This document shows positions 5,455 to 56,750 of a stretch of 64,000 nt of DNA, piece by piece. The position numbers were made by a program, and so were the translations under genes. The stretch lies in NCBI GenBank assembly GCA_965215765.1, contig OZ244118.1, forward strand, positions 175,292 through 239,291, written 5' to 3'. The notes under the pieces were generated by a model. It ran no database searches. It saw only the letters and a list, made by a program, of their open reading frames with translations, and was not told the origin of the DNA. Every line of letters starts with the position of its first letter. Position 1 is the first letter of the stretch. This DNA comes from an uncultured candidatus Porisulfidus sp. (lineage in GTDB: Bacteria; Pseudomonadota; Gammaproteobacteria; Poriferisulfidales; Oxydemutatoraceae).

Positions 5455-6362
5455 GGAAGCCTGCTCAGGAGCCATCGGCACCCGCACTTCTCGGCAAGGC
5501 AATTGCAGGAGAAGTACGTGAACTGTTCTGAAATAACGCCGAAACGCGATCACCAAGCCTGCAGATGGTTATCGGTGCCCTCACTTCTCGGAAAGGCAAT
5601 TGCAGGAGAAGTACGCGAACCGTTCTGAAATAACGCCGAAACGCGATCACCAAGTCTGCTCAGGGGACATCGGTGCCCGCACTTCTCGGCAAGGCAATTG
5701 CCGGAGAAGCATGCGAACCGTTCTGAAATAACGCCGAAACGCGATCATCAAGCCCGCTCAGGGGTTATCGTGCCCGCACCTCTCGGCAAGGCAGTTGCAG
5801 GAGAAGTACGCGAACCGTTCTGAAATAACGCCGAAACGCGATCATCAAGCCTGCAGAGGGTTATCGGCACCCACACTTCTCGGCAAGGCAATTGCAGGAG
5901 AAGTACGCGAACCGTTCTGAAATAACGCCGAAACGCGATCACCAAGCCTGCTCAGGGGACATCGGCACCCGCACTTCTCGGCAAGGCAATTGCAGGAGAA
6001 GTACACGAACCGTTATGAAATAACGCCGAAACGCGATCATCAAGCCTGCGTGGGTTATCGGCACCCGCACTTCTCGGCAAGGCAATTGCAGGAGAAGTAC
6101 GCGAACCGTTCTGAAATAACGCCGAAACGCGATCACCAAGCCTGCTCAGGGGTTATCGCCTCCCACACATCCCGGCAAGGCAATTGCAGGAGAAGCACGC
6201 GAACCGTTCCGAAATAACGCCGAAACGCGATCATCAAGCCTGCAGAGGGTTATCGGCACACTCACTTCTCGGCAAGGCAATTGCAGGAGAAGCACGCGAA
6301 CCGTTCTGAAATAACGCCGAAACGCGGTCACCAAGCCTACAGAGGGCTATCGGCACCCTGCA
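5455..6362. repeat. Non-coding tandem array, ~97 bp unit, about 9.3 copies
   Basis: Anchor gaaataacgccgaaacgcg recurs at 5530, 5627, 5725, 5822, 5919, 6017, 6113, 6211 and 6308 (spacing 96-98 bp). The unit is not a multiple of 3. Each unit carries the inverted repeat cttctc-N16-gagaag. Lies between convergent ispH and the SRPBCC gene. Confidence 0.95.
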
Positions 6363-6386
6363 GCCTGGATTGGGGTTGGATCGGTC

Positions 6387-6983
6387 TCAGTAAGGGGGTT
6401 TCGGCTTCTCGCCGTTTCCAGGAGCAAATATGGACGCAAGGTTATCCAGCCCCCCTCTGTAGACGCTTTTTATGACTCCAAGAGACATCTCATCTCTTTT
6501 TTCCTGATCCATGTCTTCGTTTCCGGCACTGTTAAAGCCGCCGGACCAGACAACCAGGCTGTGTCCCGCATCCTCGCCGGCTCCCACACTCAATTCGGAT
6601 ACATAGTCCATTACTGGCAGAACTTTCGGGTCAACTGCCAAGATTCGGTACTCATAGGATCGAGCCTGACCGTCATATCCCAAGAGTTCCTCGCTAATCG
6701 TTACGTCCTCCCCCAGGTAGAGAGTCCGTTTCGCGCCCGGGGTATGCCCCCCTTCGTGAACAGATTTCACAATCGCAGGATGCCACGCTTGCATGTTGCC
6801 GAAGTCCCCGAGAACAGCCCAGACCACTTCAGGTGGTGCTGCCACCTCAACGCTTTCAGAGACCATAAGAAGTCCTTTCGGCTGTTTTTCAGGTTTTTTG
6901 TCGCGCTCACACCCTTGAACGAGTGCCAGCGACAACAGGGAAAACGTTAATAGCGTCAGCCATTTCGGGTTTTTGGAATTCAT
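6387..6983 (-). CDS. SRPBCC-fold (MxaD/polyketide-cyclase-like) lipoprotein
   Basis: 198 aa. Signal peptide with lipobox-like LVQGC. Core VAAPPEVVWAVLGDFGNMQAWHPAIV... resembles SRPBCC ligand-binding domain proteins. Confidence 0.55.
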   Translation of the reverse strand: MNSKNPKWLTLLTFSLLSLALVQGCERDKKPEKQPKGLLMVSESVEVAAPPEVVWAVLGDFGNMQAWHPAIVKSVHEGGHTPGAKRTLYLGEDVTISEELLGYDGQARSYEYRILAVDPKVLPVMDYVSELSVGAGEDAGHSLVVWSGGFNSAGNEDMDQEKRDEMSLGVIKSVYRGGLDNLASIFAPGNGEKPKPPY

Positions 6984-7293
6984 GTTACCTCCGGGAAAAG
7001 CACTAAAGCGAACGGTGCTTCAAGTGTGCCCACGGCAGGGGATTTTATTAGTGGCAAGGTGATCCGTCAACAAGCTGAGGGAAAAGGATACCCACTTCTG
7101 GTCAGCTACGTATGTGTCTGTCGATTTTTGGTCTCTGGTGTGCGGGAAAAGCTTGTTGGCGTTCAAGAAAAAGAACTCGCGATCCAGCCTCTCATGTCAA
7201 GACCTGCCGTACGACTGGTCAGCACTTTGAATATTTTGTGCTTTGTAGGTGAGTGCGGGAGAGGAGAGAGGCAGTGCCCTGCAAGTTTCCTGC

Positions 7294-10014
7294 CTAACGT
7301 ACTGCGCCTCCCAAGAGAGTCCGTACTCGCACTCGCAGTGACGCTGATTCCGGAACCAGCGGCGTTGTGACACCACTCTGTTGGAAATACAGGAGGGTAT
7401 CGTTGCCAGACACCACATTGAAATAGCCTTGAAGCTCAAAATCAAGGCTAAATTCGCCGGTCAGATTGGGCTCAATTTCCTCCTCTATTCCCAAAGACAA
7501 CATCAAGATAGCCTCTTTGTCGCCACCAAGAACGAGGACGGAGTCGGTTCTTTTATCGCCAATTATCAGATAAACACAGTTGGTGGCAGAATCGGATTCG
7601 CACACCGTGACCGTATTGGACGTGACCATACTCCCGGAGGCTTCTGTCAATGTAACCTTAAAAGTGCTATATCTGTCTGGGGCAGGATCCAGTGTAACTT
7701 TCACCGCTACCGAAAGGGGGTTATGCGGTGCGTCAGTAGTAAACCCCAGTGTGCTTCCCGTAACCAGTACTGTGATCCGAACTGTAGACATGGGTTGCAT
7801 TGTGGCTTCACCCTGTTGAAAATTCAGAGGCAACTTGTTGCCGGAGCCTTCATTTGTATAGCCTTGAAGCTCAAAATCAAGGCTGAATTCGCCGGTCAGT
7901 CCGGGGTCAATTTCCCCTGCTATTCCCAAAGACAATATCAAGCGAGTCACACTGGTGCCACCAAGAACGGGGACAGTATCGGTTCCTGGATCACCGACTT
8001 TCAGATAAACGCAGTCAGTGTCAAAGTCGGACACGCACACCGGAACCGTGCCGGAGGTTTTTGTCAATGCAACTCTCAGAACTCTATCTTGTTCAGGGGG
8101 AGGATCCAGCGTGACGCTCGCCGTTACCGGAATGGCTGCATGCGGTGTATCAAGAGTAAATCCCAGTGTGCTTCCCTCTGCCATTACAGTGACCCGAACT
8201 GTAGTCAAGGGCCGTCCGGCATTACCTGGTTGAAAATTCAGGGGCAACCTGTTGCCGAAGCCTTCATTGATATAGCCTCGAAGCGCAACCACAAATTCAA
8301 ATTCGCCGGTCAGACCGGAGTCAATTTCCCCCACTTTCCCCAAAGACAGTATCAAGCGGGTCACACTGGTGCCAGCAGAAATGTCGGCTGTGCCGGTTCT
8401 TCCGCCGCCGATTCTCAAAAAAACGCAACCGGTGTCAGAAACGTATTCGCACACACGGACCGTACCTGAGGTTCTTGTCAATGCAACTCTCAGAACGCCA
8501 TTTTTTTCAGGGGCAGGAACCAGCGTGACGTTCGCAGTTACCGGAATGGTTACAGACGGTGAGGCAAGAGTAAACCCCAGTGTGTCTCCCTCAACCATTA
8601 CAGTGATCCGAACTGCAGGAACTACGGGGAATCCAATAATTCGGGGCAATTGTTCGGCAGTTCCGAAGTCCCAAATATCCGAACTCCAGTTTTCAAAGGG
8701 AGCGATGAGAAGGTTTTCGTTTCCGCAGACGGTACCGGGAGTGGTCGGACATTGTAGTTGGGCAAGTGCTACCTGGGTGGTGACGCCTGATGGTGCCGTT
8801 GCACCAGAGTGCCGTATCGTCGTGCCAACGTAATAGTTTCCAGTTGATGTGAGCGTTGCGGAACCACCTGTGTCGTACAGGAAACTGTTTTCAGGGGTCC
8901 CTGTTGCAAAATTGTTTTCCAGACGACCTGTTCCGTATATAAACCCCAACAAACTTCCAAACCTTAACCCTTGTGATTCAACCCCCCCCGTTGCATAACT
9001 GTTCCTGACCAACCAGGTTTCCTGTAGCTCGCCAATCAGCCCACCTGCCCTTAAGAAGTTAGCAGAACCATCAACATTCCCTGTTGAGTAGGAGTTCAGC
9101 ACTGTTGACCTTCTGCCAGCAGAAGTATCCCCCTGACCCAGTACGCCAATCAAGCCCCCCGCATTAGCACTGGCGGACACTGCCCCAGTCGCACGGCTTT
9201 CGCTGATCATGGACGCTATTGCGCGGCCGATCAGTCCTCCGGCTGTATATGCTCCAGCGTTGATGGATCCATTTGCAAAGCTGTTTAGTACACTTGAACT
9301 CGTCGCAAAGCCAATCAGTCCTCCGACAATTCTCTGAGACAGATCGAGCCTCGCTTGACTTCTCGTTGACCCCAAAACCAAATCACCCACCGCAGAGCAA
9401 CGTCTAACCGTCGCTGTGGAAAGCATACCGACCAGTCCTCCCAAGTATTCTTGGGCTCTAAATCCTGCGATCCGTGATGTTGGCCGCACCACCACATCGC
9501 TTCTACAGTCGCTCAAATTGGCATCTTTGAATAAGCCCACGAGCCCCCCGACTTGGTGACGACCCGCTACAGTCCCCGTTACTGTGCTTCTTTCTATGTT
9601 CCCCAGGCTTTCCCCCACCAGAGCTCCCACTAAATCACGTCCTGTAACGACCACGTTTACCAGGTTAAGGTTTCGTATTTCTCCACTGGAAGACAACTTG
9701 CCAAACAGCCCAACCCTTGATGAGGAAGGGCGATTAATGGTCAGATTGCTGATGGACATATTGTTCCCGTCGAAAGTTCCGGAGAAACCATCAGCGCCAC
9801 CAATCGGAACAAAATCCGTACCAGTGGCGTCAATGTCTACGCACAGCACATAATTGCTGGTCGGACTCGAAGTGATTGCCAGCAATTGGTTGATGTTTGT
9901 GATTGCGTAGGGAGTGTCGCTCCCGTTCCCTGAAGGGTTTTCACATGACGTTTGTGCAGACGCAGAACCTGCAAATATCAGTATCGCAAAAACGAGCACA
10001 CCGTACCGGCACAT
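7294..10014 (-). CDS. GLUG-motif beta-helix surface protein A (C-terminal ...LLGGAVR tail)
   Basis: ORF is open 7294..10125. Preferred start is ATG 10014 (MCRYGVLVFAILIFAGSASA|QT, a Sec signal). N-terminal module ...YVLCVDIDATGTDFVPIGG..FSGTFDGNNMSISNLTINR..RVGLFG. Then many VGGLVG/GGLIG (GLUG-like) repeats and three tandem ~138-aa beta-sandwich-like modules. Tail is SLRVRVRTLLGGAVR-stop. Confidence 0.8.
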   Translation of the reverse strand: MCRYGVLVFAILIFAGSASAQTSCENPSGNGSDTPYAITNINQLLAITSSPTSNYVLCVDIDATGTDFVPIGGADGFSGTFDGNNMSISNLTINRPSSSRVGLFGKLSSSGEIRNLNLVNVVVTGRDLVGALVGESLGNIERSTVTGTVAGRHQVGGLVGLFKDANLSDCRSDVVVRPTSRIAGFRAQEYLGGLVGMLSTATVRRCSAVGDLVLGSTRSQARLDLSQRIVGGLIGFATSSSVLNSFANGSINAGAYTAGGLIGRAIASMISESRATGAVSASANAGGLIGVLGQGDTSAGRRSTVLNSYSTGNVDGSANFLRAGGLIGELQETWLVRNSYATGGVESQGLRFGSLLGFIYGTGRLENNFATGTPENSFLYDTGGSATLTSTGNYYVGTTIRHSGATAPSGVTTQVALAQLQCPTTPGTVCGNENLLIAPFENWSSDIWDFGTAEQLPRIIGFPVVPAVRITVMVEGDTLGFTLASPSVTIPVTANVTLVPAPEKNGVLRVALTRTSGTVRVCEYVSDTGCVFLRIGGGRTGTADISAGTSVTRLILSLGKVGEIDSGLTGEFEFVVALRGYINEGFGNRLPLNFQPGNAGRPLTTVRVTVMAEGSTLGFTLDTPHAAIPVTASVTLDPPPEQDRVLRVALTKTSGTVPVCVSDFDTDCVYLKVGDPGTDTVPVLGGTSVTRLILSLGIAGEIDPGLTGEFSLDFELQGYTNEGSGNKLPLNFQQGEATMQPMSTVRITVLVTGSTLGFTTDAPHNPLSVAVKVTLDPAPDRYSTFKVTLTEASGSMVTSNTVTVCESDSATNCVYLIIGDKRTDSVLVLGGDKEAILMLSLGIEEEIEPNLTGEFSLDFELQGYFNVVSGNDTLLYFQQSGVTTPLVPESASLRVRVRTLLGGAVR

Positions 10015-10339
10015 TGACACCGCCAAAGAATGGCAGGGTTCACAGCACTTAACCTTGTTGGGCTCGTGCCTAAAGGTGGCACTCTTGCAAAGAGCCATCA
10101 ACACTGAAACGACTTGTTCTGACACAATAAATCGACCTCCTGGTTACCCTTAATTAAAGGGCAAATAAAGAAACGAACGAGATCGGGTAATTGTATGGGC
10201 TGCTCGGGAGTTTGTCTGTAAACTGTAGGCGGATGTTGAATTTCGGCTACAGATTCCACGCCACAACTTTGGGCGACAGACAGCCCGGCGATGACCTTGC
10301 CGGGTTCGTACCTTGAAGCAATATCGTGGTGACCCGAAT

Positions 10340-11030
10340 CATCTGCCAAGCAGACTTCCGGTTGCCCGGCACTTTTGTTTTTTCAGCTTTTCCTTTTCGT
10401 CGAGCAGCACAATGCGAAGAAATGGGGTGACCGCCTTGAACGGGAGCTCATTTTGTCCCGAAGGCTTCCAGGCTTCTGACGAAACAGGTGCGGTGCAGCT
10501 CATCGTGTGTGCGCACAGATTTTTCAGGGCTTCCTGCCGGAAGGTGCAGCCAGTATCGGTCTTTCCACAACGAGACAGTCAGCCCCGGCACACAGTGCCT
10601 GTTCCGGCTTGGGCTCGAGTTTGTGGTTGTTTGTTGGTGTTTCGTCCATACGAATGCCTGGCGTAAAAATTGCAAATCCCCGACCATTCTGCCTGTGTGC
10701 CGCCGCCACTTCGCTACCGGATGCCGACTCCGTGACACCCGGGCACTTGGTCTGCCTCGCCCGAACACAAATCAACGCGCCGAGACTCCCTTCATTGACC
10801 TGTTTTTCGCCTCTTTTTGACCCAGACAGCTTAAAAACGTAAACAACAGAACCTTCAGGTGTGGGATACAGTTCTCCACCACCGCTTCCAGCATGACCTC
10901 ATGACGATACACATCGAGAAAAGAAATTCCGTTGTCTGACAGGTTTTGCACTGAGATACCCACCGTTCCTGTAACATCGTGAAGTTTCAAACCCACGAAC
11001 ACTCTTGTGTCACGATTCAGTAGCCGGTTT
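10340..11030 (-). pseudogene. Decayed pyrF copy (frameshifted, 5'-truncated)
   Basis: Collinear nucleotide similarity to pyrF 18832..19530. ORF pieces 10524..10775 (...AIFTPGIRMDETP...) and 10772..11002 (...LKLHDVTGTVG...) sit in different frames. Confidence 0.75.
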
Positions 11031-11059
11031 GCAGAAAATGTTGCGGCATTCAGGAGCCA

Positions 11060-11335
11060 GAGAACGGTGCGTCAAATAGTCACCGGGTTCCATAGTTTTA
11101 CTTCCGGAGAAAACCGCGAAACTTTCTTGTGGGGCACACATTTGAGGCGAATAGTTGCGCAATACTCGTTGTCCGGTTGCAAAACGCAGGAGTTTGATCG
11201 CTGGAGACCCCCGTTACTCTTAACGCCAGGTTTTTCGTGTTTATGACACGGCGTCGTGATGACCTGCTTCAGGCTGGATATGGCTGGAAGCTTACGACCG
11301 GACAGGGCTTTGAAACCATTGTGCTTTGCGGGCAG
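11060..11335 (-). pseudogene. gshA fragments (two pieces joined by an internal deletion)
   Basis: Matches gshA around 19868..19910 (FAVFSGSKT region) joined to around 20350..20510 (SLKQ.ITTPCHK.EK.GVK.NG...VLQ.DNEY.ATIR). ORF 11072..11383 reads this mosaic. Confidence 0.7.
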
Positions 11336-11392
11336 TGCCCTGCTTGTGGAAGAGAAGGAGTGGTGTGTGGCAGTGCCCTGCAAGTTTCCTGC

Positions 11393-13654
11393 CTAACGTA
11401 CCGCGCCGCCCAAGAAAGCCCGCATCCGCAGCGAAGCCTCCCCCCCTGTGGCATTTGTGGCATTACCCTGTTGAAAATTCAGGCGGAACTTGTTGCCGGA
11501 GCCTACATTGAGATAGCTTTGAAGCCGAACCTCAAGTCTAAATTCGCCGGTCTGACCGAGGGCGATTTCCCCCGCTCTTTCCAAAGACAGTTTCAGGCGA
11601 GCCGCGTCGGTGCCAGCAGAAACGAAGACTGTGTCGGTTGTTTTGCCGTCTATTTCGATGATTGGATAAACGCAGTTGGTGTCAGACTCGGATCCGCACA
11701 CCGTGACCGTACCGGAGATTTTTGTCAATGTAACTTTCAGAGTGGTATCTTCATCAGGGGCAGGAACCAGCGTGACGCTCGCAGTTACCGGAATGGGCGC
11801 AGAAGCCCCCCTCAAAGTAAATCCCAGCGTACTTCCCCCAACCTCTACAGTGACCCGAACTGTAGGATCTCCGGGGAGTCCAACAAGTCGGGGCAATTGT
11901 TCGGCATTCCCTAAGTCCCAAATATCCGGACTCCATTCTTCAAAGGGAGAGATGCCATCGCAGACGTCATCCGGAGCTATCGGACATTGTAGTTGGGCAA
12001 GTGCCACCTGTGTGGTGACGCCCGACGGAACCGCTGCGCCAGCGAATCGTACCGTCGTGCCAGTGTAATAGTTCCCGATTGGTGTGAGATTTACGGAATC
12101 ACTTATGTTGTACATGAAACTGCTTTCAGTGCTCCCGGTTGCAAAACTGTTCTCCAAGATACCTGTTCCGAACACATACCCCAATAAACTTCCAAATTCT
12201 ACATTCTCTGCCAGTCTGGAGTTCCCTGTTGCGTAACTGTTCCTGACCAACCAAATTTCCTGCACCTCGCTAATCAGCCCACCTGTTCTGATCTGAGGGA
12301 TGATACCAAAGTCATCAACATTCCCCGTTGAGTAGGAGTTCAGCACTGTTGACCTTCTAAAGGTAGAATTATCCCTACCGAGTATGCCAATCAAGCCACC
12401 CGCACTCCTTGAAGCGGTCACTGTCCCGCTCGCAAAGCTTTCACTGATCATGGTATTTATTGCGCGACCGATCAGTCCTCCGGCTGTAGCTGCTCCGGCG
12501 TCGATCTGTCCAGTTGCGATGCTGTTTAGTACACTCGAGCCCGTCGCAAGGCCAATCAGTCCTCCGACAATTCTCTCTGCCAACTCGATACGCATTTGAC
12601 TTTTCCCGTTCGGCAAAGCCAAATTACCCGTTGCTGAGCAACGGCGAACCGTTGCCCCGGAAAGCTCACCAACCAGTCCCCCCAAGTATTCTTTTGTTTT
12701 TTGTGGTGCGGTTTCTGCTTTTGTCCGCACCACCACATCGCTTTTACAGTCGCTCAAATTGGCATTGCTGAATGCGCCGACGAGTCCGCCGACTTGGTGA
12801 CGTCCCACTACAGCTCCCGTTACCGAGACTTTTTCTATGTTCCCCAGGCCTTCCCCTACCAGAGTGCCCACAAAATCACGTCCGGTAACGACCACGTTTA
12901 CCAAGTTAAGGTTTCGTATTTCTCCACCGGAAGCCAATTTGCCAAACAGCCCAACCCTTGATGAGGAAAGGCGATTAATGGTCAGATTGCTGATGGACAT
13001 ATTGTTCCCGTCGAAAGTTCCGGAGAAACCATCAGCGCCACCAATCGGAACAAAATCCGTGCCAGCGGCATCAATGTCCGCGTCCAGCACATAATTGCTG
13101 CCTGGTCTCGCAGTGATTGCCTGCAGTTGGACGAAGGTTTCGATTCTGAATGCGCCCACGAGCCTGCCGACATAATCACGTCCCGTTACAGTTCCCGTTA
13201 CCGCGCTTCCTTCTATCTTCCCCAAGCTTTCCCCCACCAGACCTCCCACATAATCACGTCCTGTAATGACCACGTCTACCAGGTTAAGGTCTCGTATTTC
13301 TCCACCGGAAGCCAATTTGCCAAACAGCCCAACCCTTGATGAGGAAGGGCGATTAATGGTCAGATTTCTGATGGTCATATTGTTCCCGTTGAAAGTTCCG
13401 GAGAAACTACTCTTGCCTCCAATCGGAACAAAATCCGTGCCAGTGGCATCAAGGTCTGCGCCCAGCGTATACCAGGCTTTCGGCATTGAAGTAATTGCCT
13501 GCAATTGGCAGACGGTTTCTATTCTGTAAGGATCGGAGTCTTTCCCGGTTCCGCCCCCTGAGGGGAGGCTCTCCTTGTTTTCACATGACGTTTGTGCAGA
13601 CGCAGAACCTGCAAATATCAGTACCGCAAAAACGAGCACACCGTAACGGCACAT
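11393..13654 (-). CDS. GLUG-motif beta-helix surface protein B (C-terminal ...FLGGAVR tail)
   Basis: ORF is open to 13765. Preferred start is ATG 13654 (MCRYGVLVFAVLIFAGSASA|QT). Two copies of the DxDATGTDFVPIGG...GTF(N/D)GNNM.I.NLTINR module, GLUG-like repeats, one ~138-aa C-terminal module. Tail is SLRMRAFLGGAVR-stop. Confidence 0.8.
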   Translation of the reverse strand: MCRYGVLVFAVLIFAGSASAQTSCENKESLPSGGGTGKDSDPYRIETVCQLQAITSMPKAWYTLGADLDATGTDFVPIGGKSSFSGTFNGNNMTIRNLTINRPSSSRVGLFGKLASGGEIRDLNLVDVVITGRDYVGGLVGESLGKIEGSAVTGTVTGRDYVGRLVGAFRIETFVQLQAITARPGSNYVLDADIDAAGTDFVPIGGADGFSGTFDGNNMSISNLTINRLSSSRVGLFGKLASGGEIRNLNLVNVVVTGRDFVGTLVGEGLGNIEKVSVTGAVVGRHQVGGLVGAFSNANLSDCKSDVVVRTKAETAPQKTKEYLGGLVGELSGATVRRCSATGNLALPNGKSQMRIELAERIVGGLIGLATGSSVLNSIATGQIDAGAATAGGLIGRAINTMISESFASGTVTASRSAGGLIGILGRDNSTFRRSTVLNSYSTGNVDDFGIIPQIRTGGLISEVQEIWLVRNSYATGNSRLAENVEFGSLLGYVFGTGILENSFATGSTESSFMYNISDSVNLTPIGNYYTGTTVRFAGAAVPSGVTTQVALAQLQCPIAPDDVCDGISPFEEWSPDIWDLGNAEQLPRLVGLPGDPTVRVTVEVGGSTLGFTLRGASAPIPVTASVTLVPAPDEDTTLKVTLTKISGTVTVCGSESDTNCVYPIIEIDGKTTDTVFVSAGTDAARLKLSLERAGEIALGQTGEFRLEVRLQSYLNVGSGNKFRLNFQQGNATNATGGEASLRMRAFLGGAVR

Positions 13655-14090
13655 TGTCGCCGCCAAAGAATGGAAGGGTTCACAGCGGTTAACCCTGTAT
13701 TGCCACTCGGCTACCGTGTTCTTCATGAAAATGAAGCTGGGGTGCCTTCGCCCCTTTGGAAACATACCCCAAGTGCTGATTCCATCGTTAGACAGGAGCC
13801 TGACTTTGGGGATTTCTTTTTAGGTCTGCGCCTGAGAGTGGCACGCCGGCAAAGAGCCACCGACTCTGAAATGATTTGTTCTGACACGGTAACTGACCCC
13901 TTATTAAAGGCTAAACAAACAAACAAACGAGATTGGGTAATTGTACGGGCTGCTCGGTCGTTTGCATATTATAGCGCAGGAGGATGTTGAAGCTTGATCG
14001 CAGTTTTAACACCACAACTTTGGGCACCAGACAGTCTGTCTGTGGCCTTGCAGGGTTCGTACCTTGAAGCAATATCGTGGTGACCTGAAT

Positions 14091-14370
14091 CATCTGCCAA
14101 TCAGGCTTCCGGCTACCCGGCACTTTTGTTTTTTCAGCTTCTCCTTTTCGTCGAGAGGCACAATGCGATGAAATGGGGAGGCTCCCTCGACCAAGAACTC
14201 GTTTTGTCCTGAAGCCTTCCATGCTTCTGACGGAACAGGTGCGGCGCAGCTCATCATGCGTACGCACAGATCTTGCAGGGCTGGCTGCACGGAAGGTGCA
14301 GCCAGCATCGGTCTTCCCACAACGATACAGTCAGTCCCGGTACGCAGTGTCTGTTCCGGCTTGAGTGCGC
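14091..14370 (-). pseudogene. pyrF 3'-terminal fragment
   Basis: ORF 14090..14320 reads ...GRPMLAAPS.QPALQDL..RMMSCAAP.PSEAW..SGQN..L.EGASPFH.IV.LDE.EKLKK, which matches the C-terminal ~75 aa of pyrF (18832..). Confidence 0.75.
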
Positions 14371-14384
14371 TCTAGCCAGAGGGC

Positions 14385-14625: not shown

Positions 14626-14667
14626 GCTTTGCAGGCGAGTGCGGGAGAGGGGCAGGCGGTTTCCTGC

Positions 14668-19677: not shown

Positions 19678-19697
19678 GCTTTCACTCAGTCAGCCAG

Positions 19698-48126: not shown

Positions 48127-48210
48127 AGCGTCTCTGGCAGACAGCGTTGCAAGCAGAAAGCACCTGCGTCTGCGTGTAACACGAATTCTTGAGCCAGGGT
48201 GCGTCGTCTC

Positions 48211-48745
48211 CCGGTTCTGAACAGGTCAAAAGCACCGCCGCCAATCGGACACTGCTTCTTCCTGATGGCTTCGTCAGAGGCACCCCCCACTCGTCATTTC
48301 GGTCACTCTTGGGTGTTACAGGGTTGGCGCAACGCAGTATTTCCCTCTTTGGCCAATCGTCTGTTTGTCGTGCTGACGATTTTTGCCAGCAGATCTGAAC
48401 AGATCAAAAGCGCCGCCGCCAATCGGACACTGCTTCTTCCTGATGGCTTCGTCAGAGGCTCCCCCACTCGTTATTTCGGTCACTCTTGGGTGATGGGTTG
48501 ACGCAACGCAGTGTTTCCCTCTTTGGCCAATCGTCTGTTTATCGTGCTGACGATTTTTGCCAGCAGAACTGAACAGGTCAAAAGCACCGCCGCCAATCGG
48601 ACACTGCTTCTTCCTGATGGCCCCGTCAGAAGCACCCCCACTCGTTATTTCGGTCACTCTTGGGTGATGGGTTGACGCAACGCAGTGTTTCCCTCTTTGG
48701 CCAATCGTCTGTTTTATCGTGCTGACGATTTCTGCCAGCAGACCG
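48211..48745. repeat. Tandem array (~174-178 bp unit, 3 copies) of glnA-dnaG spacer sequence
   Basis: ccaatcggacactgcttcttcctgatgg occurs at 48241, 48419 and 48593. The same spacer is single-copy at about 53700..53890. Confidence 0.88.
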
Positions 48746-49526
48746 GCGGCTTTTGCCGGCTCGAGGGCATCCTTTACCCGTGAAGGCTTATGCAGCAGGT
48801 ATGTGATGACCACGCGCGCCGAGTTGTACTGGTGTTGCCGGGGTGACTTCTGTGGAGACGCCCGCAACAAAGTCCGGGACGGTCGGAGCGCGAGATCTGC
48901 TGCCGGCTGCCGGCTGCCGGCTTTTTTGGCAAGCTCCTCCGGGAGACAAGTTTTTGAAAATGGTCTTTGGCAACGGGAGAAGCAATTTTTTGGCATGCGC
49001 AACGAGCTGTGTGCAACCTTCCGGATTTTCCAGCAACACGCCTGCCGCAAGATTTTGCAAGGCAAAGCGTGACAGCGGTACTGCCTGGTTCGAGTCAAAT
49101 GCGGATGGCCCTTGCTCCTTCACCAGATCGTCAGGATCCCGGTTTTCCGGAAGCGACAAAAACCGCACATCTTTCCCGTCTTTGAAAAGTGGCAGCAAAA
49201 CCGTGGATGCGGCCAAAGCGACCCGTTGTCCCGCAGCGTCACCGTCAAAGCAGAAGACGATCTCGTCGGACATTTTGAACAGGCTTGATATGTGGTAGGC
49301 GGTTACTGCGATGCCCGGCGTGGCAACGCAGTTTCTCATGCCAAGAGAGGCAAGAGAGACCACGTCCATATAGCCTTTAACCACCCACGCTTCGTTGGAG
49401 CTTTTTATGGTGCTGGCTTCAGGAACCCCATAAAGTTCGCGGCGTTTTTGGAACAACGGGGTTTCGGGAGAGTTAAGGTATTTGGCATGCGCACTCTCAT
49501 CCAGTGCCCGCCCACCAAAAGCAATG
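48720..49526 (-). pseudogene. dnaG internal/3' fragment (frameshifted), fused to a gltB fragment
   Basis: ORF 48788..49687 reads ...IIAFGGRALDESAHAKYLNSPETPLFQKRRELYG...GYMDVVSLA...FCFDGDAAGQR. (TOPRIM region) and then shifts frame relative to dnaG at 54828..56543. Confidence 0.85.
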
Positions 49527-49885
49527 ATGCGGGAGGGGAGAAGCGCGACGTAAAATGCTTCGTTCGGCGCACCAAAGGCAATTTCGGCGCACCGTCTGGC
49601 GATAAAAAGCCGACGTTCGAAGTCTTGGACATCATCATTTGTGCCGTCTCGCTTTGTGGCGCGGCAAAAACACCATGTCAGCAGCAAACAGCTTTGCGAG
49701 CTTCAGTTTTGCTTCTTCTGCTGTGACGCGTAAAAAGAGCTCAGGTTTCTTTAGCAGCAGGCCGCACCCATCGCCAGTTTTTCCGTCTGCCGCAATCGCG
49801 CCGCGATGTGTCAATCGGGACAGGGCTTTGATACCTGTAGTGACCAGGTGGTGGCTCGGCGTGTCATCCCTTATGGGCGATCAGA
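49527..49885 (-). pseudogene. gltB 5' fragment (internally deleted), 5' part of the chimera
   Basis: ...NDD.QDFERRLFIARR.AEIA.G..NEAFYVA.L.SR.IA matches gltB residues near 60640..60760. It also matches 60890..61140 after a deletion of about 140 bp at a short direct repeat. Confidence 0.85.
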
Positions 49886-50196
49886 TCTGCACAGGGCAGA
49901 GGTGTGGGCGTCTCGTTTTGGAGTAAATCACGGCGCGGCACCCGTTTTGCACTGACCGGTCAATGTTGCCGTGTTCCTTGTGCTGGCGTGACGAATTACG
50001 GCTTCCTTCCTGAAAACGCGTGGTACTATAAGCCGGCACGGAACAGCCAACGGAGTTCCGCTCGGAGACGGCGTTCGCTTCTGCCGCCTTGGTAAAGAGG
50101 CGGAGCTTTCGGGTGACAGTGGTTGGAGGGGTGCTTCGTGAGTGTTTTTGTATTTTGATTGAGCTTTGACTTGGCTCGGAGCGGAGGGACGTACTT

Positions 50197-52491
50197 GTGT
50201 TAGTAGACAGTTATGGGTTTTTTGCGGCTTGCAGGAAAATTGCTTGCCTTTCCATTTTGCTTGCATTCTCGTCGAGTGCCCAAGCGATATTTGTAACGAC
50301 ACCAGTCGATGTCACTTTCGAAGAATCACCGTCAACAATAACAGAAATGTTTGGCTCCGCCCAAGAGAACAGTTTTCTGATCAAAAAATTGACAATTACA
50401 AATGGTAGTGCGCAGACTAAATGGAGCATAGGGGATGGGGATGGGGAGCCGAAATATGGTAGAGCCGACTTTATCAGTTCCACCGCACGTTCGGATGCCA
50501 CTACCGTAACCGTGACCCTTACGACCATGGGGGAGACAGTTGTTGTCAGGTACAAGTTGCGTGATGATCCCGCTCCCAGTGGAAGTGGTGATGTAGGTAC
50601 ACTTGATCAATTTGACGTGATTATTGAGGATGATACAAGTAAAACCAAGGTGATTGCTCTTGTTGGTATCCGTAACAATCCGCCAATAGTACGTGATTCC
50701 AAAGGAGCAGAGATTACCGACCCTACATCCGTTGGTATATCTGCAGCTACGTATGTTGTTGGTGGGGTGAGTACGGCTGTGTTCACGGCATACGAAAAGC
50801 AAGGTGAAGGTGTGGTTGGTACTGCTCCTTACCTTAGGTGGTCAATTTATAGTGTTAACGAAGGCTCTACCGTGTCCTTTTCCAATGGTGAGCAAACCAC
50901 TACGGGTCTTCAAACTACCTCAGAAATAGAGGTGGTGTATAGAAGCTCCCAGGATGAAAACATCGAAAATGCAGGGTATACACTGGTGGTGAAAGACACC
51001 ATTGGCAGAGCAGCCACCGTTACTGTGTCGCTCATGCCGGAGCCCCCGGTGATTAGTACGTATGAAGGTTCTCCGGTTGAAAATGGCGTATTAAGTATTG
51101 ATGTGCGTGAGTCTGCTTTTGGTGATCGAGGGTTTAAGTTTAGGCTTTCAGCTGAGTATGCCTGCCCGACGACGCTTCCGGCATGTTTGAAATGGAATGC
51201 CGAAAGTGAAACTGCAGAAGTATCTGTAGACCCTACTGCCGCTGCAATGGCGGGAGCCCCACTTACAGTCACAGTCCAAAGACCAGACAGTTCGCCAGTT
51301 TCTTTCCAGGTTAAGGTTAGAGTTTTGGATAACTCCGACGATACACTCTTGAATCGTGAAATCACTGTTAACGTAACGGTTATAGAGAACATGCCGCCCG
51401 AAATTGTGTCGATAGACGGGCGGACAGATACAACGGTGTTCACTGTTTCGACAAATTTAGAAACCGTGCGATTTCCTGTCGTTGCTGCTGATGATTTTGA
51501 ACCGGAAAGCTTGACATGGGAGATTTCCAATGCTGCGGGTTCAGGCAAAGGCACCGCCAGCTTCGTCGTGGGGGATGGGATGCTGCCGTCAACAACCGCC
51601 AGGGGGACAACGGTCGTTGTCAGCTTTGTGAGATCGTCGCCTGTAAGCACGACAGGGTCGTCATTCACACTCACCGTGATGGATACTGAGGGGCTTATGG
51701 ATACGGCTACGGTGACAGTTAATCCGAGTGAGTCTCCCACTATTCCGACACAGGTGCCGAATGCTGGGTTGCTTGGTGGATGGCGAGATATGGTTGTAAT
51801 GCCGGTGGCTTCAAGCCAGGTTGTGATACTCAGGGCAGAAGACTTTGGACTTGGGGAAAAAGCAGCTCTGGAGTGGGAAGTTACAAATCTTTTCGGTCTT
51901 GATTTTGATAGCACAAATAGCAAGACCATGGGGTCAGAAGGCAGGCTTGTGTTCAGGTTGGCTGATCCAAGGACGCAACTTACCGGCAGATTCACTGTTG
52001 AGGTAACAAATTCCTACGGAGAAAAAACCAGTAGGCGGATTACGCTTAGCGGAGAAAATGAGCCTCCCGTAGTAACGTACCGGGTCGGTGATGTGTCTTC
52101 CAGCCGCAGTGGGACTGGAGGAACGATAGCCTTGCCGGAGAGTGCGTTGACAATGATCATGTTTAGTGCCGACGATCCAGTTGGTCAGCCTGTAGCGGGT
52201 TCCACATTCACGTGGACATTAGTGGGTCAGGATGTCGCCTTGACAGCATCTTTCGTCGGAGTAATGCCTGAAACGAGCCGCGAAACCACAGGGAAGAGTG
52301 TTGTCGTTCAGTTCGTGAGGGGGGCACCCGGGGTGGAAAGCTCTTTTATTATTGAGGTCAGCGATGGTCGTGATAATGATGAAACGGGTGGAAACGGCAC
52401 CAATCGCATAACCGTGAATATAGTGCCCATGGAGGCGGGGCAGGTAGGGCAGCTCAGGGTCAGAACGTTTCTGGGTGGTGCCGTCCGCTGA
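50197..52491 (+). CDS. Large secreted Ig/cadherin-like repeat protein A (C-terminal ...FLGGAVR tail)
   Basis: 764 aa. GTG start with GGAGGG upstream. Signal peptide ...CLSILLAFSSSAQA|IF. Repeated beta-rich modules separated by N(N/M/E)PP(I/E/V)V motifs. Tail is QLRVRTFLGGAVR-stop. Family unassigned. Confidence 0.8.
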   Translation: MLVDSYGFFAACRKIACLSILLAFSSSAQAIFVTTPVDVTFEESPSTITEMFGSAQENSFLIKKLTITNGSAQTKWSIGDGDGEPKYGRADFISSTARSDATTVTVTLTTMGETVVVRYKLRDDPAPSGSGDVGTLDQFDVIIEDDTSKTKVIALVGIRNNPPIVRDSKGAEITDPTSVGISAATYVVGGVSTAVFTAYEKQGEGVVGTAPYLRWSIYSVNEGSTVSFSNGEQTTTGLQTTSEIEVVYRSSQDENIENAGYTLVVKDTIGRAATVTVSLMPEPPVISTYEGSPVENGVLSIDVRESAFGDRGFKFRLSAEYACPTTLPACLKWNAESETAEVSVDPTAAAMAGAPLTVTVQRPDSSPVSFQVKVRVLDNSDDTLLNREITVNVTVIENMPPEIVSIDGRTDTTVFTVSTNLETVRFPVVAADDFEPESLTWEISNAAGSGKGTASFVVGDGMLPSTTARGTTVVVSFVRSSPVSTTGSSFTLTVMDTEGLMDTATVTVNPSESPTIPTQVPNAGLLGGWRDMVVMPVASSQVVILRAEDFGLGEKAALEWEVTNLFGLDFDSTNSKTMGSEGRLVFRLADPRTQLTGRFTVEVTNSYGEKTSRRITLSGENEPPVVTYRVGDVSSSRSGTGGTIALPESALTMIMFSADDPVGQPVAGSTFTWTLVGQDVALTASFVGVMPETSRETTGKSVVVQFVRGAPGVESSFIIEVSDGRDNDETGGNGTNRITVNIVPMEAGQVGQLRVRTFLGGAVR

Positions 52492-52604
52492 GAAATTGAC
52501 CTTGGTGCCCTTCGGGTGGGCAATATGTTTACCAGATGGCGTGGCTTTGGTCTCGGTTCCTGTACGGGAACCAGCAGATAAAGCGATAGCCTTGGCGAGG
52601 TTTT

Positions 52605-53650
52605 AACGCAGGAACAAACAGCCACAAAAGGCTGGTTCCCTGTTTTGAGGCACCGGTCAATCTGGCTTACTCGCGGCGAAATCGCTCGGCTGCGATACGT
52701 GTCCCGTTGGTCAACTCCCAGAAGGAAACGCATGTTGAAATCCGTTTCCCAGATGCGCTTGGCAATCCCTGTTTGACTTTTGCTTCCATTCTGAAACATT
52801 GCCAGCGTGTGCGGCAGCCTGCCAGAGGCACTTGCGGCACTGAACAGTGATCGCGGGTTTCTCAAAACAGGCAATGTGTTTTCAGATGTCATGATTGATG
52901 GCTGCATCGCATTAAAAATGCAGGAAATAAACCGGTTTCGAGCTTCTACCCATCCCCTGGAGTTCGGCATGTACTACTGTTGCTAAAGCGTCTCTCGCAG
53001 ACAGCGTTGCGAGCAGAAAGCACCTACGTCTGCGTGTAACACGAATTCTTGAGCCAGGGTGCGTCGCCTCCCGGTTCTGAACAGGCCAAAAGCTCCGCCG
53101 CCAATCAGACACTGCTTTTTCCTGATGGTCTCGTCAGAGGCACCCCCACTCGTCATTGGCACTTGCGGCACTGAACAGTGATCGCGGGTTTCTCAAAAAA
53201 GGCAATGTGTTTTCAGATGACATGATTGATGGTTGCATCGCATTAAAAATGCAGGAAATAAACCGGTTTCGAGCTTCCACCCATCCCCAGGAGTTCGACT
53301 TGTACCACTGTTGCTAAAGCGTCTCTCGCAGACAGCGTTGCAAGCAGAAAGCACCCACGTCTGCGTGTAACACGAATTCTTGAGCCGGGGTGCGTCGCCT
53401 CCCGGTTCTGAACAGGCCAAAAGCTCCGCCGCCAATCAGACACTGCTTCTTCCTGATGGCCTCGTCAGAAGCACCCCCACTCGTCATTGACACTTGCGGC
53501 ACTGAACAGTGATCGCGGGTTTCTCAAAAAAGGCAATGTGTTTTCAGATGTCATGATTGATGGCTGCATCGCATTAAAAATGCAGGAAATAAACCGGTTT
53601 CGAGCTTCCACCCATCCTTTTGAGTTCGACATTTACTACAGCTGCTAGGG
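52605..53650 (+). pseudogene. Three tandem glnA 3'-end fragments plus spacer (331 bp period)
   Basis: The first copy starts at the glnA NAGTNSYKRLVPGFEAP equivalent and has an internal deletion. Anchors (g/a)cacttgcggcactgaacagtgatcg occur at 52828, 53159 and 53490. Each copy ends ...MQEINRFRAS.HP.EF..YY.C-stop. Confidence 0.9.
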
Positions 53651-53928
53651 CGTTTCTCGCAGACAGCGTTGCAAGCAGAAAGTGCCCACGTCTGCGTGTA
53701 ACACGAATTCTTGAGCCAGGGTGCGTCGCCTCCCGGTTCTGAACAGATCAAAAGTGCCGCCGCCAATCGGACACTGCTTCTTCCTGACAGCTTCGTCAGA
53801 GGCACCCCCACTCGTCATTTCGGTCGCTCTTGGGTGATACAGGGTTGACGCAACGCAGTATTTCCCTCTTTGGCCAATCGTCTGTCCGGTTGTTGCCATC
53901 AGAGGGCTCTTGCGAGGCGGGCTGGTGT

Positions 53929-54827
53929 TTAGCGTTTTTTAATCAGTTCTTGCAAAGTCTTTTTTTCTTCGAGACTGAGTTCTGTTGCTTCAGCTTTCTT
54001 GATCAGCGCTTCCAGCAGACCGGCGACTTTTTCCGGCTCGAGGGCGTCCTTTACCTCTGAAGGCTTATGCAGCAGATATGTGATGGCCACGCGCGCCGAG
54101 TTGTACTGGTGTTGCCGGGATAGCTTCTGTGGAGATGTCTGCATCAAAGTCCGGGGCGGGTTGGTGTTTAGCGTTTTTTAATCAGTTCTTGCAAAGTCTT
54201 TTTTTCTTCGAGACTGAGTTCTGTTGCTTCAGCTTTCTTGATCAGCGCTTCCAGCAGACCGGCGACTTTTGCCGGCTCGAGGGCGTCCTTTACCTCTGAA
54301 GGCTTATGCAGCAGATATGTGATGGCCACGCGCGCCGAGTTGTACTGGTGTTGCCGGGATAGCTTCTGTGGAGATGTCTGCATCAAAGTCCGGGGCGGGT
54401 TGGTGCTTAGCGTTTTTTAATCAGTTCTTGCAAAGTCTTTTTTTCTTCGAGACTGAGTTCTGCCGCTTCAGCTTTCTTGATCAGTGCATCCAGCCTGGTC
54501 GTCTGCACGTGATTTTCAAGTGCTTTCATGGAATCTCCAAACTCGTCCCGGGTCGGAGCCTTCTCGTTCAGCAGTTCCAGGAGACGCTGGTAGTGTTTGT
54601 GGTCACTCAGAAGTTGCAACAAAGCCCCGGTACTGGCCGGCTGCCGGCTTTTTATCGTGCTGACGATTTCTGTCAGCAGACCGGCGACTTTTGTCTGCTC
54701 GAGGGCGTCCTTTACCTCTGAGGCTTATGCAGAAGATATGTGATGGCCACGCGCGCCGAGTTGTACTGGTGTTGCCGGGATGGCTTCTGTGGAGATGTCT
54801 GCATCAAAGTCCGGGGCGGGTTGGTGC
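53929..54827 (-). repeat. Three tandem dnaG 3'-end fragments (239, 239, 421 bp units)
   Basis: ttagcgtttttt(t)a(a)tcagttcttgcaaag (stop plus ...KKTLQELIKKR) occurs at 53929, 54168, 54407 and at the genuine gene end 54828. The units are mosaics of dnaG C-terminal coding segments. Confidence 0.9.
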
Positions 54828-56543
54828 TTAGCGTTTTTTTATCAGTTCTTGCAAAGTCTTTTTTTCTTCGAGACTGAGTTCTGCCGCTTCAGCTTTCTTG
54901 ATCAGTGCATCCAGCCTGGTCGTCTGCACGTGATTTTCAAGTGCTTTCATGGAATCTCCAAACTCGTCCCGGGTCGGAGCCTTCTCGTCCAGCAGTACCA
55001 GGAGACGCTGGTAGTGTTTGTGGTCACTCAGAAGTTGCAACAAAGTCCCGGTACTGGCTGGCTGCCGGCTTTTTATCGTGCTGACGATTTCTGCCAGCAG
55101 TCTGGTACCTTTTATTCCGGTTTTCGCTATGACCGCAGGCTCGAGGGCGTCCTTTACTCCTGAAGGCTTATGCAGCAGATATGTGATGGCCACGCGCGCA
55201 GAGTTGTACTGGTGTTGCCGGGATGACTTCTGTGGAGACGCCTGCATCAAAGCCCGGGGGGACGGTCGGATCGCGAGTTCTGCTGCTGGCAGACCGGCTT
55301 TTTTGGCAAGCTCCTCCGTGAGAAAGTTTTTGAAAATGGTCTTTGGCAACGGGTGAAGCAATTTTTTGGCACGTGCAACGAGCTGTGTGCGACCTTCCAG
55401 ATTTTCCAGCAACACGCCTGCCGCAAGATTTTGCAAGACAAAGCGTGACAGCGGTACTGCCCGGTTGGAGTCAAATGCAGATGGCCCTTGTTCCTTCACC
55501 AGATCGTCAGGATCCTGGTTTTCCGGAAGCGAGAAAAATCGCACATCTTTCCCGTCTTTGAATAGTGGCAGCAAAACCGTGGATGCGGCCAAAGCGGCTC
55601 GTTGTCCCGCAGCATCACCGTCAAAGCAGAAGATGATCTTGTCGGACATTCTGAACAGGCTTGATATGTGGTAGGCGGTTGCTGCGGTGCCCAGCGTGGC
55701 AACGCAGTTTCTCATGCCATGCGAGGCAAGAGAGACCACGTCCATATAGCCTTCAACCACCCACACTTCGTTGGAGCTTTTTATGGTACTGGCTTCTAGA
55801 ACCCCATAAAGTTCGCGGCGTTTTTGGAACAACGGGGTTTCGGGAGAGTTAAGGTATTTGGCAAGCGCACTCTCATCTAGCGCCCGACCACCAAAAGCGA
55901 TGACGCGTCCGCGCCGATCACGAATCGGAAACATCAGGCGATTAAAAAAGCGGTCGTAGCAAGTTCTTCCTTTTATGACCACCAGGCCGGCAAGTTCCAA
56001 AAGGCGCATGTCAAAATCCTTTGCCAGCTGTGTGGCAAGTGTGTTTCTTCCATGTGGGGCATAGCCGATCATGAAGTCCAGGGTGGTTGCCGGGTCAATT
56101 TGTCGGGAACGAAGGTAGTTTTTGGCTGTGGAGCTCCGGGACAACGCGTCCTGATAAAAAAGCGCGGCTTTTTCGAGTGCTTTGAACAGGTCTTCTGTGT
56201 GTTTTTTCGATCGCTCTGTCTGCGCCGGTGAAGCACCGCTGCGAGGCACAGTCATGCCATAACGATCTGCCAAGGATTCGATCGTTTCAACGAAGCTCAG
56301 GTTTTGATACTCCATGAGGAAGCGAATGATGTTGCCCCCTACGCCACAGCCGAAGCAGTGGTAAAACTGTTTGTCCCGGTCGACGGTGAAAGATGGGGTC
56401 TTTTCCTGGTGGAAGGGGCAGCACGCTTTGTAGCTGTTCCCTCGCCGTTTCAGGGGAACAAACTCTTCGATGACGTCAACAATGTCGGCTCGGGAAACCA
56501 GGTCGTTGATAAACTGCTCAGAAATTCTGCCGCGTTGTGCCAT
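54828..56543 (-). CDS. dnaG: DNA primase
   Basis: ORF is open to 56591. The ATG at 56543 gives MAQRGRISEQFINDLVSRADIVDVIEEFV.LKR.G..YKACCPFH.EKTPSF (Zn-ribbon), then TOPRIM (VVEGYMDVV, FDGD.AG). Confidence 0.93.
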   Translation of the reverse strand: MAQRGRISEQFINDLVSRADIVDVIEEFVPLKRRGNSYKACCPFHQEKTPSFTVDRDKQFYHCFGCGVGGNIIRFLMEYQNLSFVETIESLADRYGMTVPRSGASPAQTERSKKHTEDLFKALEKAALFYQDALSRSSTAKNYLRSRQIDPATTLDFMIGYAPHGRNTLATQLAKDFDMRLLELAGLVVIKGRTCYDRFFNRLMFPIRDRRGRVIAFGGRALDESALAKYLNSPETPLFQKRRELYGVLEASTIKSSNEVWVVEGYMDVVSLASHGMRNCVATLGTAATAYHISSLFRMSDKIIFCFDGDAAGQRAALAASTVLLPLFKDGKDVRFFSLPENQDPDDLVKEQGPSAFDSNRAVPLSRFVLQNLAAGVLLENLEGRTQLVARAKKLLHPLPKTIFKNFLTEELAKKAGLPAAELAIRPSPRALMQASPQKSSRQHQYNSARVAITYLLHKPSGVKDALEPAVIAKTGIKGTRLLAEIVSTIKSRQPASTGTLLQLLSDHKHYQRLLVLLDEKAPTRDEFGDSMKALENHVQTTRLDALIKKAEAAELSLEEKKTLQELIKKR

Positions 56544-56750
56544 AGGGTTCAGTGAGCTTTGAGCCGCGTGGAAGGCTTTGCCACTTGCCAACCAGATTCT
56601 GCTCCCGATGAGCAGTGCGGCTCAGCACGCTCAAGAAGGGAAACTGGTTCGATTTTCCACACTGCAAGCAACAGCCGGAAAAGGGTTTTTATAACTTGGG
56701 GACAGGCAAGCTGTGGCTGCAGGGCACTGTTTCCGGAAACAGCAGCGCAA

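Follow-up and report, generated by a model that had tools for sequence, protein, structure and literature searches.

Intergenic tandem arrays with units of tens to about 100 bp, often lying within operons, variable in number between strains and leaving the flanking genes intact, are familiar from the MIRU-VNTR (mycobacterial interspersed repetitive unit, variable number tandem repeat) loci and from other VNTR or multiple-locus VNTR analysis (MLVA) loci. Tandem duplications at very short direct repeats, together with destabilised repeats, are known from rad27/FEN1 yeast, from 5'-nuclease mutants of Escherichia coli polA and from the loss of single-strand exonucleases. The closest precedent for the arrays described here is Ehrlichia ruminantium (Collins et al. 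2005; Frutos et al. 2006), a small host-associated genome with many sequence-unrelated, non-coding tandem arrays of long period (~150 bp), which grow and shrink from strain to strain and reduce its coding fraction, and in which, as Collins et al. reportedly found in 2005, most pseudogenes are repeat-associated truncated gene fragments derived from ongoing duplication. Published accounts of its repeats describe many variable-copy long-period tandem repeats in non-coding DNA, a coding fraction of ~64% and repeat-associated truncated fragments (PMC10710844, PMC7343930), and a partial ntrX duplicate undergoes gene conversion into the functional ntrX (PMC9937504). Here we describe tandem arrays of gene ends and spacers in a 64-kb stretch of contig OZ244118.1 (hereafter the window) from an uncultured bacterium of Candidatus Oxydemutatoraceae, a family described from sponges (PMC11685487). 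The arrays noticed in an initial annotation of the sequence are confirmed, and their class is a known one, found here in an unrelated gammaproteobacterial lineage, at unusual density and with an array-free sister genome for comparison. Probably, these are long-period arrays similar to VNTRs or minisatellites that reflect frequent local duplication within a single lineage of this sponge-associated family, and the gene fragments within them are by-products and not functional elements.

Between 5.4 and 55.3 kb the window contains nine sequence-unrelated non-coding arrays, with periods of 97-331 bp and 2-9 copies, and one split 211-bp pair (Table 1). Tandem Repeats Finder (TRF), self-blastn and in-register mapping of the units together recovered every array listed in the initial annotation. 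TRF and copy mapping show the copies to be head to tail, in register and without spacers. In self-blastn no array resembles another except for three within the glnA-dnaG region, a mosaic of duplicated fragments, so the earlier statement that the arrays are unrelated in sequence holds outside that mosaic. At periods of 80 bp and above, TRF reports 11 arrays in the window; the nine non-genic ones amount to 10.3 kb, or 16% of the window, which is 74% coding overall vs 89% outside the arrays. Eight of the nine non-genic periods are not multiples of three, and the units cross stop codons, spacers or convergent gene ends. Inside genes there are just two arrays, with periods of 414 and 378 bp (each divisible by three), and both belong to genes for large, repetitive Glug/M26-like surface proteins. 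Higher-order periods of 195/292, 433 and 477 bp are also detected by TRF. Gene identities, taken from NCBIfam and Pfam, comprise ispH, SRPBCC, a macro-domain deacetylase, pilV, a pilW-like gene, an amino-acid ABC transporter, sctI/sctJ, dtd, ffh, glnA and dnaG.

The individual arrays (A1-A9) differ in what they copy and in age. The unit of A2 joins ~40 nt of upstream DNA to the 5'-terminal 177 nt of the gene for the macro-domain protein (O-acetyl-ADP-ribose deacetylase), whose intact copy lies at 21853-22389; the array and its period are as first annotated, with about 4.5 extra copies instead of the five given there. Units that straddle gene ends, as the annotation had it for all loci, are found in the gene-end arrays and not in A1, which is purely intergenic. 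A1 is the oldest array (mean copy identity 0.89), and A9 holds the youngest copies (identity 0.987); the intact dnaG lies at 54828-56591. The 331-bp array was misplaced in the initial annotation, which had put it at the 3' end of glnA: it lies 4.7 kb from the intact gene, in the second copy of a ~16-kb segmental duplication, and a fourth 331-bp unit adjoins the intact glnA at 47967-48298. Each unit of A1 (5474-6358) also carries an inverted repeat of ~10 bp, ACTTCTC...GAGAAGT, which may be the remnant of a bidirectional terminator; its fold is not significantly above that of shuffled sequences.

The arrays share with E. ruminantium the head-to-tail order of copies, units made of local unique sequence, strain-variable copy number and truncated fragments beside intact parent genes. 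The copies abut and whole units of 97-331 bp repeat, which is not the architecture of clustered regularly interspaced short palindromic repeats (CRISPR), with short repeats and unique spacers of similar length. Nor do the arrays form a dispersed family like MIRUs, repetitive extragenic palindromes or bacterial interspersed mosaic elements (REP/BIME) or miniature inverted-repeat transposable elements (MITE), since the sequence of each array is unique in self-blastn. None of the non-genic arrays is an in-frame coding repeat, a class represented only by the separate 414- and 378-bp arrays. With the same TRF settings, 82 unrelated control loci totalling 957 kb, among them Joint Genome Institute (JGI) metagenome loci picked up by a scan with the GshA protein, yielded 2 arrays of period >=80 bp vs the 11 in 64 kb reported above. 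The density in the window is ~80 times that of the control, in agreement with the earlier impression of an unusual accumulation. The GshA scan of JGI metagenomes found no close relative (<=50% identity).

Two genomes of the same group allow a direct comparison. The Ffh protein of the window, which derives from an organism of 52% GC, is 95% identical to that of a Candidatus Oxydemutatoraceae metagenome-assembled genome (MAG) with a circular chromosome of 1,918,571 bp (OZ243039.1; the sister species) and 81% identical to that of a second relative (OZ250161.1, 2,000,500 bp). The sister sequence compared comprises 41.5 kb, contiguous from two loci (L003 + L088) and collinear with the window, and contains no non-coding array. 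At all eight comparable loci, those of the A2-A9 units, the sister and the second relative have at most one unit copy: in the sister, A2 corresponds to L088 8838-9046 and A6 to L003 11251-11537, A3 and A4 are present in 1 copy each and A5 in at most 1. The sister dnaG and glnA are directly convergent, ~220 bp apart (L003 8081-8300), at the place where the window has 6.7 kb of mosaic. Positions 18726-61360 of the window make 42.6 kb, compared with 30.9 kb in the sister (ratio 1.38), and the excess of 11.7 kb equals the summed arrays and mosaic, which account for the whole difference in length; over 31306-61360, aligned to L003, the ratio is 1.52 (30.1 kb vs 19.8 kb). The 12 comparable flanking genes (all those listed but ispH and the SRPBCC gene) are full length by comparison with their sister orthologues, 12/12, and their NCBIfam coverage was also checked, which bears out the earlier remark that the outermost copies leave the flanking genes intact.

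Five further contigs overlapping the window, all from the metagenome assembly ERZ25071281, were found by exact-protein look-ups. They are ~97.5-98% identical to the window in unique DNA, and their arrays match those of the window in kind and site but not in copy number (Table 1). In addition, A7 has 3.0 tandem copies by TRF in the window vs 3.8 at the corresponding place in L002, and the A8/A9 region is far shorter in L001. The comparison of copy number across strains, suggested as a check in the initial annotation, therefore reveals differences at A2, A3, A4, A6 and A7-A9. No simple orthology links the five copies of the dtd/ffh unit in L001 to the nine in the window: variants are reassorted among copies, and all dtd/ffh copies carry derived states relative to the single copy of the sister. 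A sixth contig, L091, represents an unlinked 24-kb locus of the same population and contains two arrays, one of 117 bp x 5.7 and the other of 305 bp x 7.2, which shows that the phenomenon is not confined to the window.

Divergence between copies ranges from 1.3 to 11% overall, with 146 transitions and 62 transversions (ts/tv 2.4) and copy-specific indels; the arrays are, as first noted, not brand new. Mean copy divergence is 0.013 in A9, 0.04-0.08 in most arrays and 0.11 in A1. Neighbouring copies are no more alike than copies farther apart, and a large number of variants are shared among copies or reassorted. The synonymous divergence (dS) of the window is 0.21-0.36 from the sister and 0.01-0.06 from the co-occurring haplotypes. 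Copy divergence falls mostly between these two ranges, and so the arrays arose after the split of the species and mostly before the split of the strains. The spread of array ages points to a continuing process, and not to a single burst, as far as copy divergence can tell. Among the between-copy substitutions read on the + strand, C>T outnumbers G>A (55 vs 29), which hints at strand-asymmetric deamination. Directed mutation similar to repeat-induced point mutation (RIP) or to that of diversity-generating retroelements (DGR) was considered and rejected: transitions predominate, as in ordinary spectra, and C>T exceeds G>A only moderately.

Placement relative to genes is far from random. If units of the observed lengths are placed randomly in the window outside its arrays (89% coding), the probability of avoiding a gene interior is 0.17-0.33 per unit, and the probability that all ten units lie outside gene interiors is ~1e-6. 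The enrichment at gene termini that the initial annotation proposed to test against a random expectation is thus present within the window. Arrays occupy 3/3 convergent junctions, 5/34 co-directional ones and 0/3 divergent ones (Fisher P = 0.006), and the largest arrays sit at convergent 3' ends. Several of the internal gene fragments have frameshifts or stops. Substitutions counted among non-functional copies only are distributed over the three codon positions as 22:15:33 (P = 0.03), a weak third-position excess that is far from the skew of functional genes. The internal gene fragments look largely unconstrained.

Table 1. Tandem arrays and larger duplications in the window, with copy numbers in overlapping haplotype contigs where these were compared
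Feature	Position	Strand	Unit and copies	Location or content	Copies by haplotype (window first)
A1	5457-6358		97 bp x 9.3	purely intergenic, between convergent ispH (stop 5451) and SRPBCC gene (stop 6387)	
A2	22213-23457	-	217 bp x 5.5-5.7	macro-domain gene 5' end	5.5 / 3.7 / 1.7 / 3.7
A3	25558-25986	-	206 bp x 2.1	last 178 nt of pilV + pilW start	2 / 3 / 2 / 3 (3 copies in L087 and L090)
A4	27053-27685	-	212 bp x 3.0	last 56 nt of amino-acid ABC-transporter ATPase gene (aapP) + 156 nt downstream	3 / 3 / 4.9 / 5 (~5 copies in L089 and L090)
Split direct repeat	28380-28590 and 29343-29553	-	211 bp, 88.6% identical, 752 bp between	aapM 3' / aapP 5' junction	
A5	34262-35905	+	238 bp x 6.9	last 66 nt of sctI + 172 nt of sctI-sctJ spacer; 477-bp higher-order period	6.9 / 7 / 7 (7 in L001 and L087)
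A6	42471-45069		289 bp x 9.0	convergent dtd/ffh: last 185 nt of dtd, ~26-nt spacer, last 78 nt of ffh	9 / 5 (5 in L001)
A7	48216-48742		174 bp x 3.0	built from glnA-dnaG spacer	
A8	52827-53819	+	331 bp x 3.0	inside truncated glnA 3' fragment 52605..53885	
A9	53913-55259	-	nested 239-bp (x2.4) and 421-bp (x2.3) duplications	dnaG 3' end + downstream DNA	
Segmental tandem duplication	47656..63802		~16 kb	first copy 47656..52562	
Cassette triplication	7258..20508	-	3.3-4 kb units, 74-89% identical	three large Glug / peptidase-M26-like surface proteins	

The junctions between copies show microhomology of 0-5 nt, from CGCA at dtd/ffh, as stated in the initial annotation, to none at the 331-bp unit; the junction of the pilV/pilW unit has a possible 17-nt imperfect match. 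Microhomology of this extent fits an illegitimate first join; a later phase of unequal homologous exchange would fit the higher-order periods, the variants shared among copies and the polymorphism in copy number. The two-step scheme first put forward, an illegitimate join followed by unequal crossing-over, is accordingly in line with the junctions, the higher-order periods, the reassorted variants and the copy-number differences between haplotypes. To judge from the junctions, 100-330 bp of local unique DNA would initially be doubled head to tail by an illegitimate join at 0-5 nt of microhomology, through template switching during replication or through end joining, and the same initiation may also act on segments of 5 and 16 kb. 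The comparison of haplotypes shows that, once there are two copies, arrays expand and contract through unequal homologous recombination or slippage between copies, which alters copy number and reshuffles variants, and co-existing strains come to differ in copy number. The placement statistics argue for a selective filter, by which a duplication within a gene would disrupt it and be lost and a duplication over a gene end or spacer would persist. When a tandem duplication spans a gene end, every gene involved still has one undamaged copy, and purifying selection alone would suffice to explain the position of arrays at gene boundaries. Convergent 3' ends are the most permissive sites because no promoter or 5' end is copied. 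Intragenic duplications would survive only when in frame within surface proteins that tolerate repeats. Finally, weak selection against surplus DNA in a host-associated population may let arrays and decaying fragments accumulate and swell the chromosome. In this scheme the gene-boundary pattern is best explained as survivorship under purifying selection.

Selection in the window may be weak. The ratio of non-synonymous to synonymous divergence (dN/dS) from the sister is 0.10-0.33 across ffh, glnA, dtd, gshA and other housekeeping genes, which is high for genes of this kind and consistent with weak selection. Together with the occurrence of at most one copy in the relatives at eight loci and with the difference in genome size discussed below, these values speak for the lineage-specific peculiarity with relaxed selection that the initial annotation had offered as one of two explanations.

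The other explanation offered there was a function of the amplified ends, as transcript-end decoys or as antisense or leader peptides, to which may be added terminator or insulator arrays separating convergent genes and the control of a neighbouring gene through copy number, as in a contingency locus. Persistence of the arrays in all six haplotypes and over 1-11% divergence would agree with such a function, as would the presence of an array at every convergent junction (3/3), the 10-bp hairpin in the A1 unit and the weak third-position excess, and the macro-domain array, which repeats a gene start with its upstream DNA, could change expression. Such a function is nevertheless hard to reconcile with units that are unrelated to one another both by sequence and by the type of gene end copied, with the frameshifts and stops in some fragments, with a copy number that drifts freely among co-existing strains and with a sister that does without any of the compared arrays; moreover, the same process yields plainly decaying large duplicates, namely the dnaG, gltB, pyrF and gshA fragments. 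Direct searches gave no sign of a function either. An Rfam scan of the whole window at gathering thresholds returned 0 matches, and a tRNA/tmRNA scan of the window with ARAGORN returned 0. Between 33.8 and 46.4 kb, promoter- and terminator-like sites occur at or below the counts expected from shuffled sequence, with none recurring per unit, and the RNA fold of the 97-bp unit of A1 is no better than that of shuffles (z-scores -0.25 and -1.87). In view of these null results and of the decay of internal fragments, we regard a function of the amplified ends as quite unlikely.

A dedicated enzyme or mobile element acting at preferred sites, such as a nuclease, restriction system or topoisomerase near GCAG-like motifs, or rolling-circle amplification, would account for the strong concentration of arrays in one lineage, and the equal similarity of near and distant copies would fit a one-step amplification to many copies. 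GCAG/CTGC occurs within +/-8 nt of 8/18 breakpoints vs 2.8 expected, and several units start with GCAG or GCAC. This excess was found post hoc, and over all 4-mers its family-wise P is 0.08: as a shared breakpoint motif GCAG/CTGC, the top 4-mer, is unproven. No transposase, integrase, HUH or reverse-transcriptase gene is present among the window open reading frames (ORFs) examined, array ages spread over 1-11% divergence indicate a continuing process instead of a single event, and shared variants and higher-order periods indicate stepwise growth; we accordingly give the involvement of a dedicated activity little credence. An artefact of assembly, either a false expansion of repeats or the stitching of strain haplotypes in tandem, deserves attention in a sample with at least six closely related haplotypes, where some minor contigs end at or near arrays (e.g. 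L002 at dtd/ffh) and copies may have been miscounted in contigs of low coverage (6-18x). Against it stand the 1-11% divergence between copies, with a natural transition-rich spectrum and copy-specific indels, and the recurrence of arrays at the same sites in five independently assembled contigs. Six single-copy haplotypes differing by ~2% cannot give nine distinct copies. The sister, closed as a circular 1.9-Mb contig with the same style of contig naming, which implies long reads, lacks these arrays, and every array is at most 2.6 kb, within the length of a single long read. An artefactual origin of the arrays is thus extremely improbable.

The account by local duplication and purifying selection has its own weak points. 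Arrays could be enriched at convergent junctions owing to a mechanistic hotspot, for example one of fork stalling or topological stress, and the data do not separate this from selection. The control contigs are mostly short-read assemblies, which possibly under-represent tandem repeats, and the two long-read relatives form a cleaner control of only ~63 kb together. The mild third-position excess among non-functional copies is not strictly neutral and may stem from base composition or from gene conversion by the functional copy. Finally, the suggestion, taken up below, that duplication has inflated the genome is extrapolated from 42.6 kb and one unlinked 24-kb locus.

Larger and older duplications accompany the arrays. 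Besides the spacer and the 3' part of the intact glnA, the first copy of the ~16-kb segmental duplication includes a 3'/middle fragment of dnaG (48712-49531), 5' fragments of gltB (49521-49885) and an Ig-like paralogue (50197-52491). The best interpretation of the glnA-dnaG mosaic is that a tandem duplication was followed by the loss of redundant sequence from the first copy, which lacks the dnaG 5' part and most of gltB, with both Ig-like paralogues retained. The paralogues, at 50197-52491 and 61521-63734, are 75-88% identical to each other in nucleotide sequence and 44-49% identical in amino acids to the single orthologue of the sister, compared with ~90% for neighbouring housekeeping genes; they encode a fast-evolving and probably surface-exposed protein. 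Decaying fragments of pyrF and gshA lie between the triplicated Glug/M26-like cassettes (10147-11312 and 13898-14631), and the in-frame repeats mentioned above lie inside the genes of these cassettes (414 bp, 7723-8615; 378 bp, 12768-13526). The number of cassettes is 3 in the window, 2 in L090 (10560-18114) and at least 2 in the sister (L088 10863-21590), where a 5.4-kb tandem duplication of the cassette starts inside gshA and has copies that are 94% identical. The aapM/aapP pair of the initial annotation is present, and it is no recent array: the split repeat and the ORF between its halves are old and common to the sister (direct repeat of 164-211 bp). The intervening ORF (28693-29307, - strand) encodes 204 aa with a signal peptide and no Pfam match, and its sister counterpart (L088 3421-3991) has only 35% identity and is apparently frameshifted. 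Both the split repeat and the 5.4-kb gshA duplication represent older products of the same duplication tendency.

Several other features of these loci are worth recording. The window includes a type III secretion cluster at 33419-38224 (a needle-family gene, sctI, sctJ, sctK and sctL) in a bacterium of a sponge-associated family, and the 238-bp x 7 array of the sctI-sctJ spacer falls inside the expected operon. In the second relative, OZ250161.1, an IS3-type transposase with an rve domain lies between ffh and dtd (L004 11397-12149), at the convergent junction where the window has its 289-bp array; its insertion there would fit convergent spacers being insertion-permissive sites. On the unlinked contig L091, the 305-bp x 7.2 array (2587-4797) is very young, with 98% copy identity, and the gene caller placed 'genes' of 430 and 280 aa over it, probably spurious ORFs that inflate gene counts. 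The ORFs adjoining the arrays of L091 gave no family matches. The same contig has 33-bp tandem repeats (GTTTTTGTTCTCAGCGGACATCTGTCGCTCCAA) at 8157-8248, 16478-16790, 19425-19491, 21906-21977 and 22101-22169; this family is dispersed over several small ORFs (180-198 aa) and is sequence-related across loci, unlike the arrays of the window.

Comparison with the described systems brings out both the familiar and the unusual side of these arrays. E. ruminantium is an alphaproteobacterial obligate intracellular pathogen of 29% GC, in contrast to the 52% GC of this gammaproteobacterium from a sponge-associated family. Here the 16% of the window that lies in non-genic arrays is dated by direct comparison with an array-free sister, and the implied effect on genome size (3.0 vs 1.9 Mb) would be much larger. 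MIRUs belong to one dispersed family of related sequences and occupy few loci per genome, whereas the units found here are locally derived, longer, far denser and include truncated coding ends. Mutants in the processing of flaps and Okazaki fragments would give the type of junction seen here, but these are laboratory strains and their duplications are mostly under ~100 bp. The gene amplifications studied by Roth and Andersson proceed by the same two steps, a rare illegitimate join and frequent RecA-dependent unequal exchange, and the 5.4- and 16-kb duplications belong to the same size class. Such amplifications, however, comprise whole genes, are selected for dosage and are quickly lost, whereas the short arrays contain no complete gene and persist to 1-11% divergence. 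The mitochondrial genome of Balanophora is reported to have grown via microhomology-associated duplications in a host-dependent lineage under relaxed selection, after loss of genes for recombination and repair (PMC12625411); as a eukaryotic organelle with other machinery, it serves as an analogy only. In the literature searched, on bacterial and symbiont genomes generally and on sponge symbionts, we found no comparable report.

The effect of the process may extend to the whole chromosome. A protein 100% identical to the GshA of the window is encoded on a contig of 2,997,607 bp, probably the source of the window, and the relatives have 1.92 and 2.00 Mb. The size ratio to the sister is 1.56, and a large share of the additional 1.08 Mb may plausibly stem from local duplication. 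A more far-reaching idea, which we hold only tentatively and consider rather unlikely as a whole, is that a heritable 'duplication-mutator' state, with very frequent short tandem duplications mediated by microhomology, has grown the chromosome from ~1.9 to ~3.0 Mb since the split from the sister (dS ~0.25), filtered only by gene integrity. Impaired processing of flaps and Okazaki fragments, or another loss in replication or repair, is one possible cause of such a state. If true, this would be an expansion of a bacterial genome by ~50% mainly through non-coding tandem duplication, and not through horizontal transfer or mobile elements, and comparison with a naturally array-free sister genome would offer a way to trace the gene behind it.

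The arrays also have consequences for the genes beside them and for the assembly of such genomes. The essential genes ffh, dnaG, glnA and dtd have decaying fragments beside them that could act as donors in gene conversion and so inactivate the gene, as in the ntrX case of E. ruminantium (PMC9937504). Assemblies made from short reads or at low coverage are broken by such arrays, and ORF counts rise through spurious 'genes'; the arrays could also be of use as markers of symbiont strains. Bacterial genomes are normally kept compact by deletion bias, and in this lineage non-coding tandem duplications appear to be tolerated and perhaps also to arise at a high rate. With an array-free sister genome and several haplotypes in one sample, it is a system suited to asking which change in repair or replication raises duplication, how fast arrays turn over and how selection acts on the placement of duplications.

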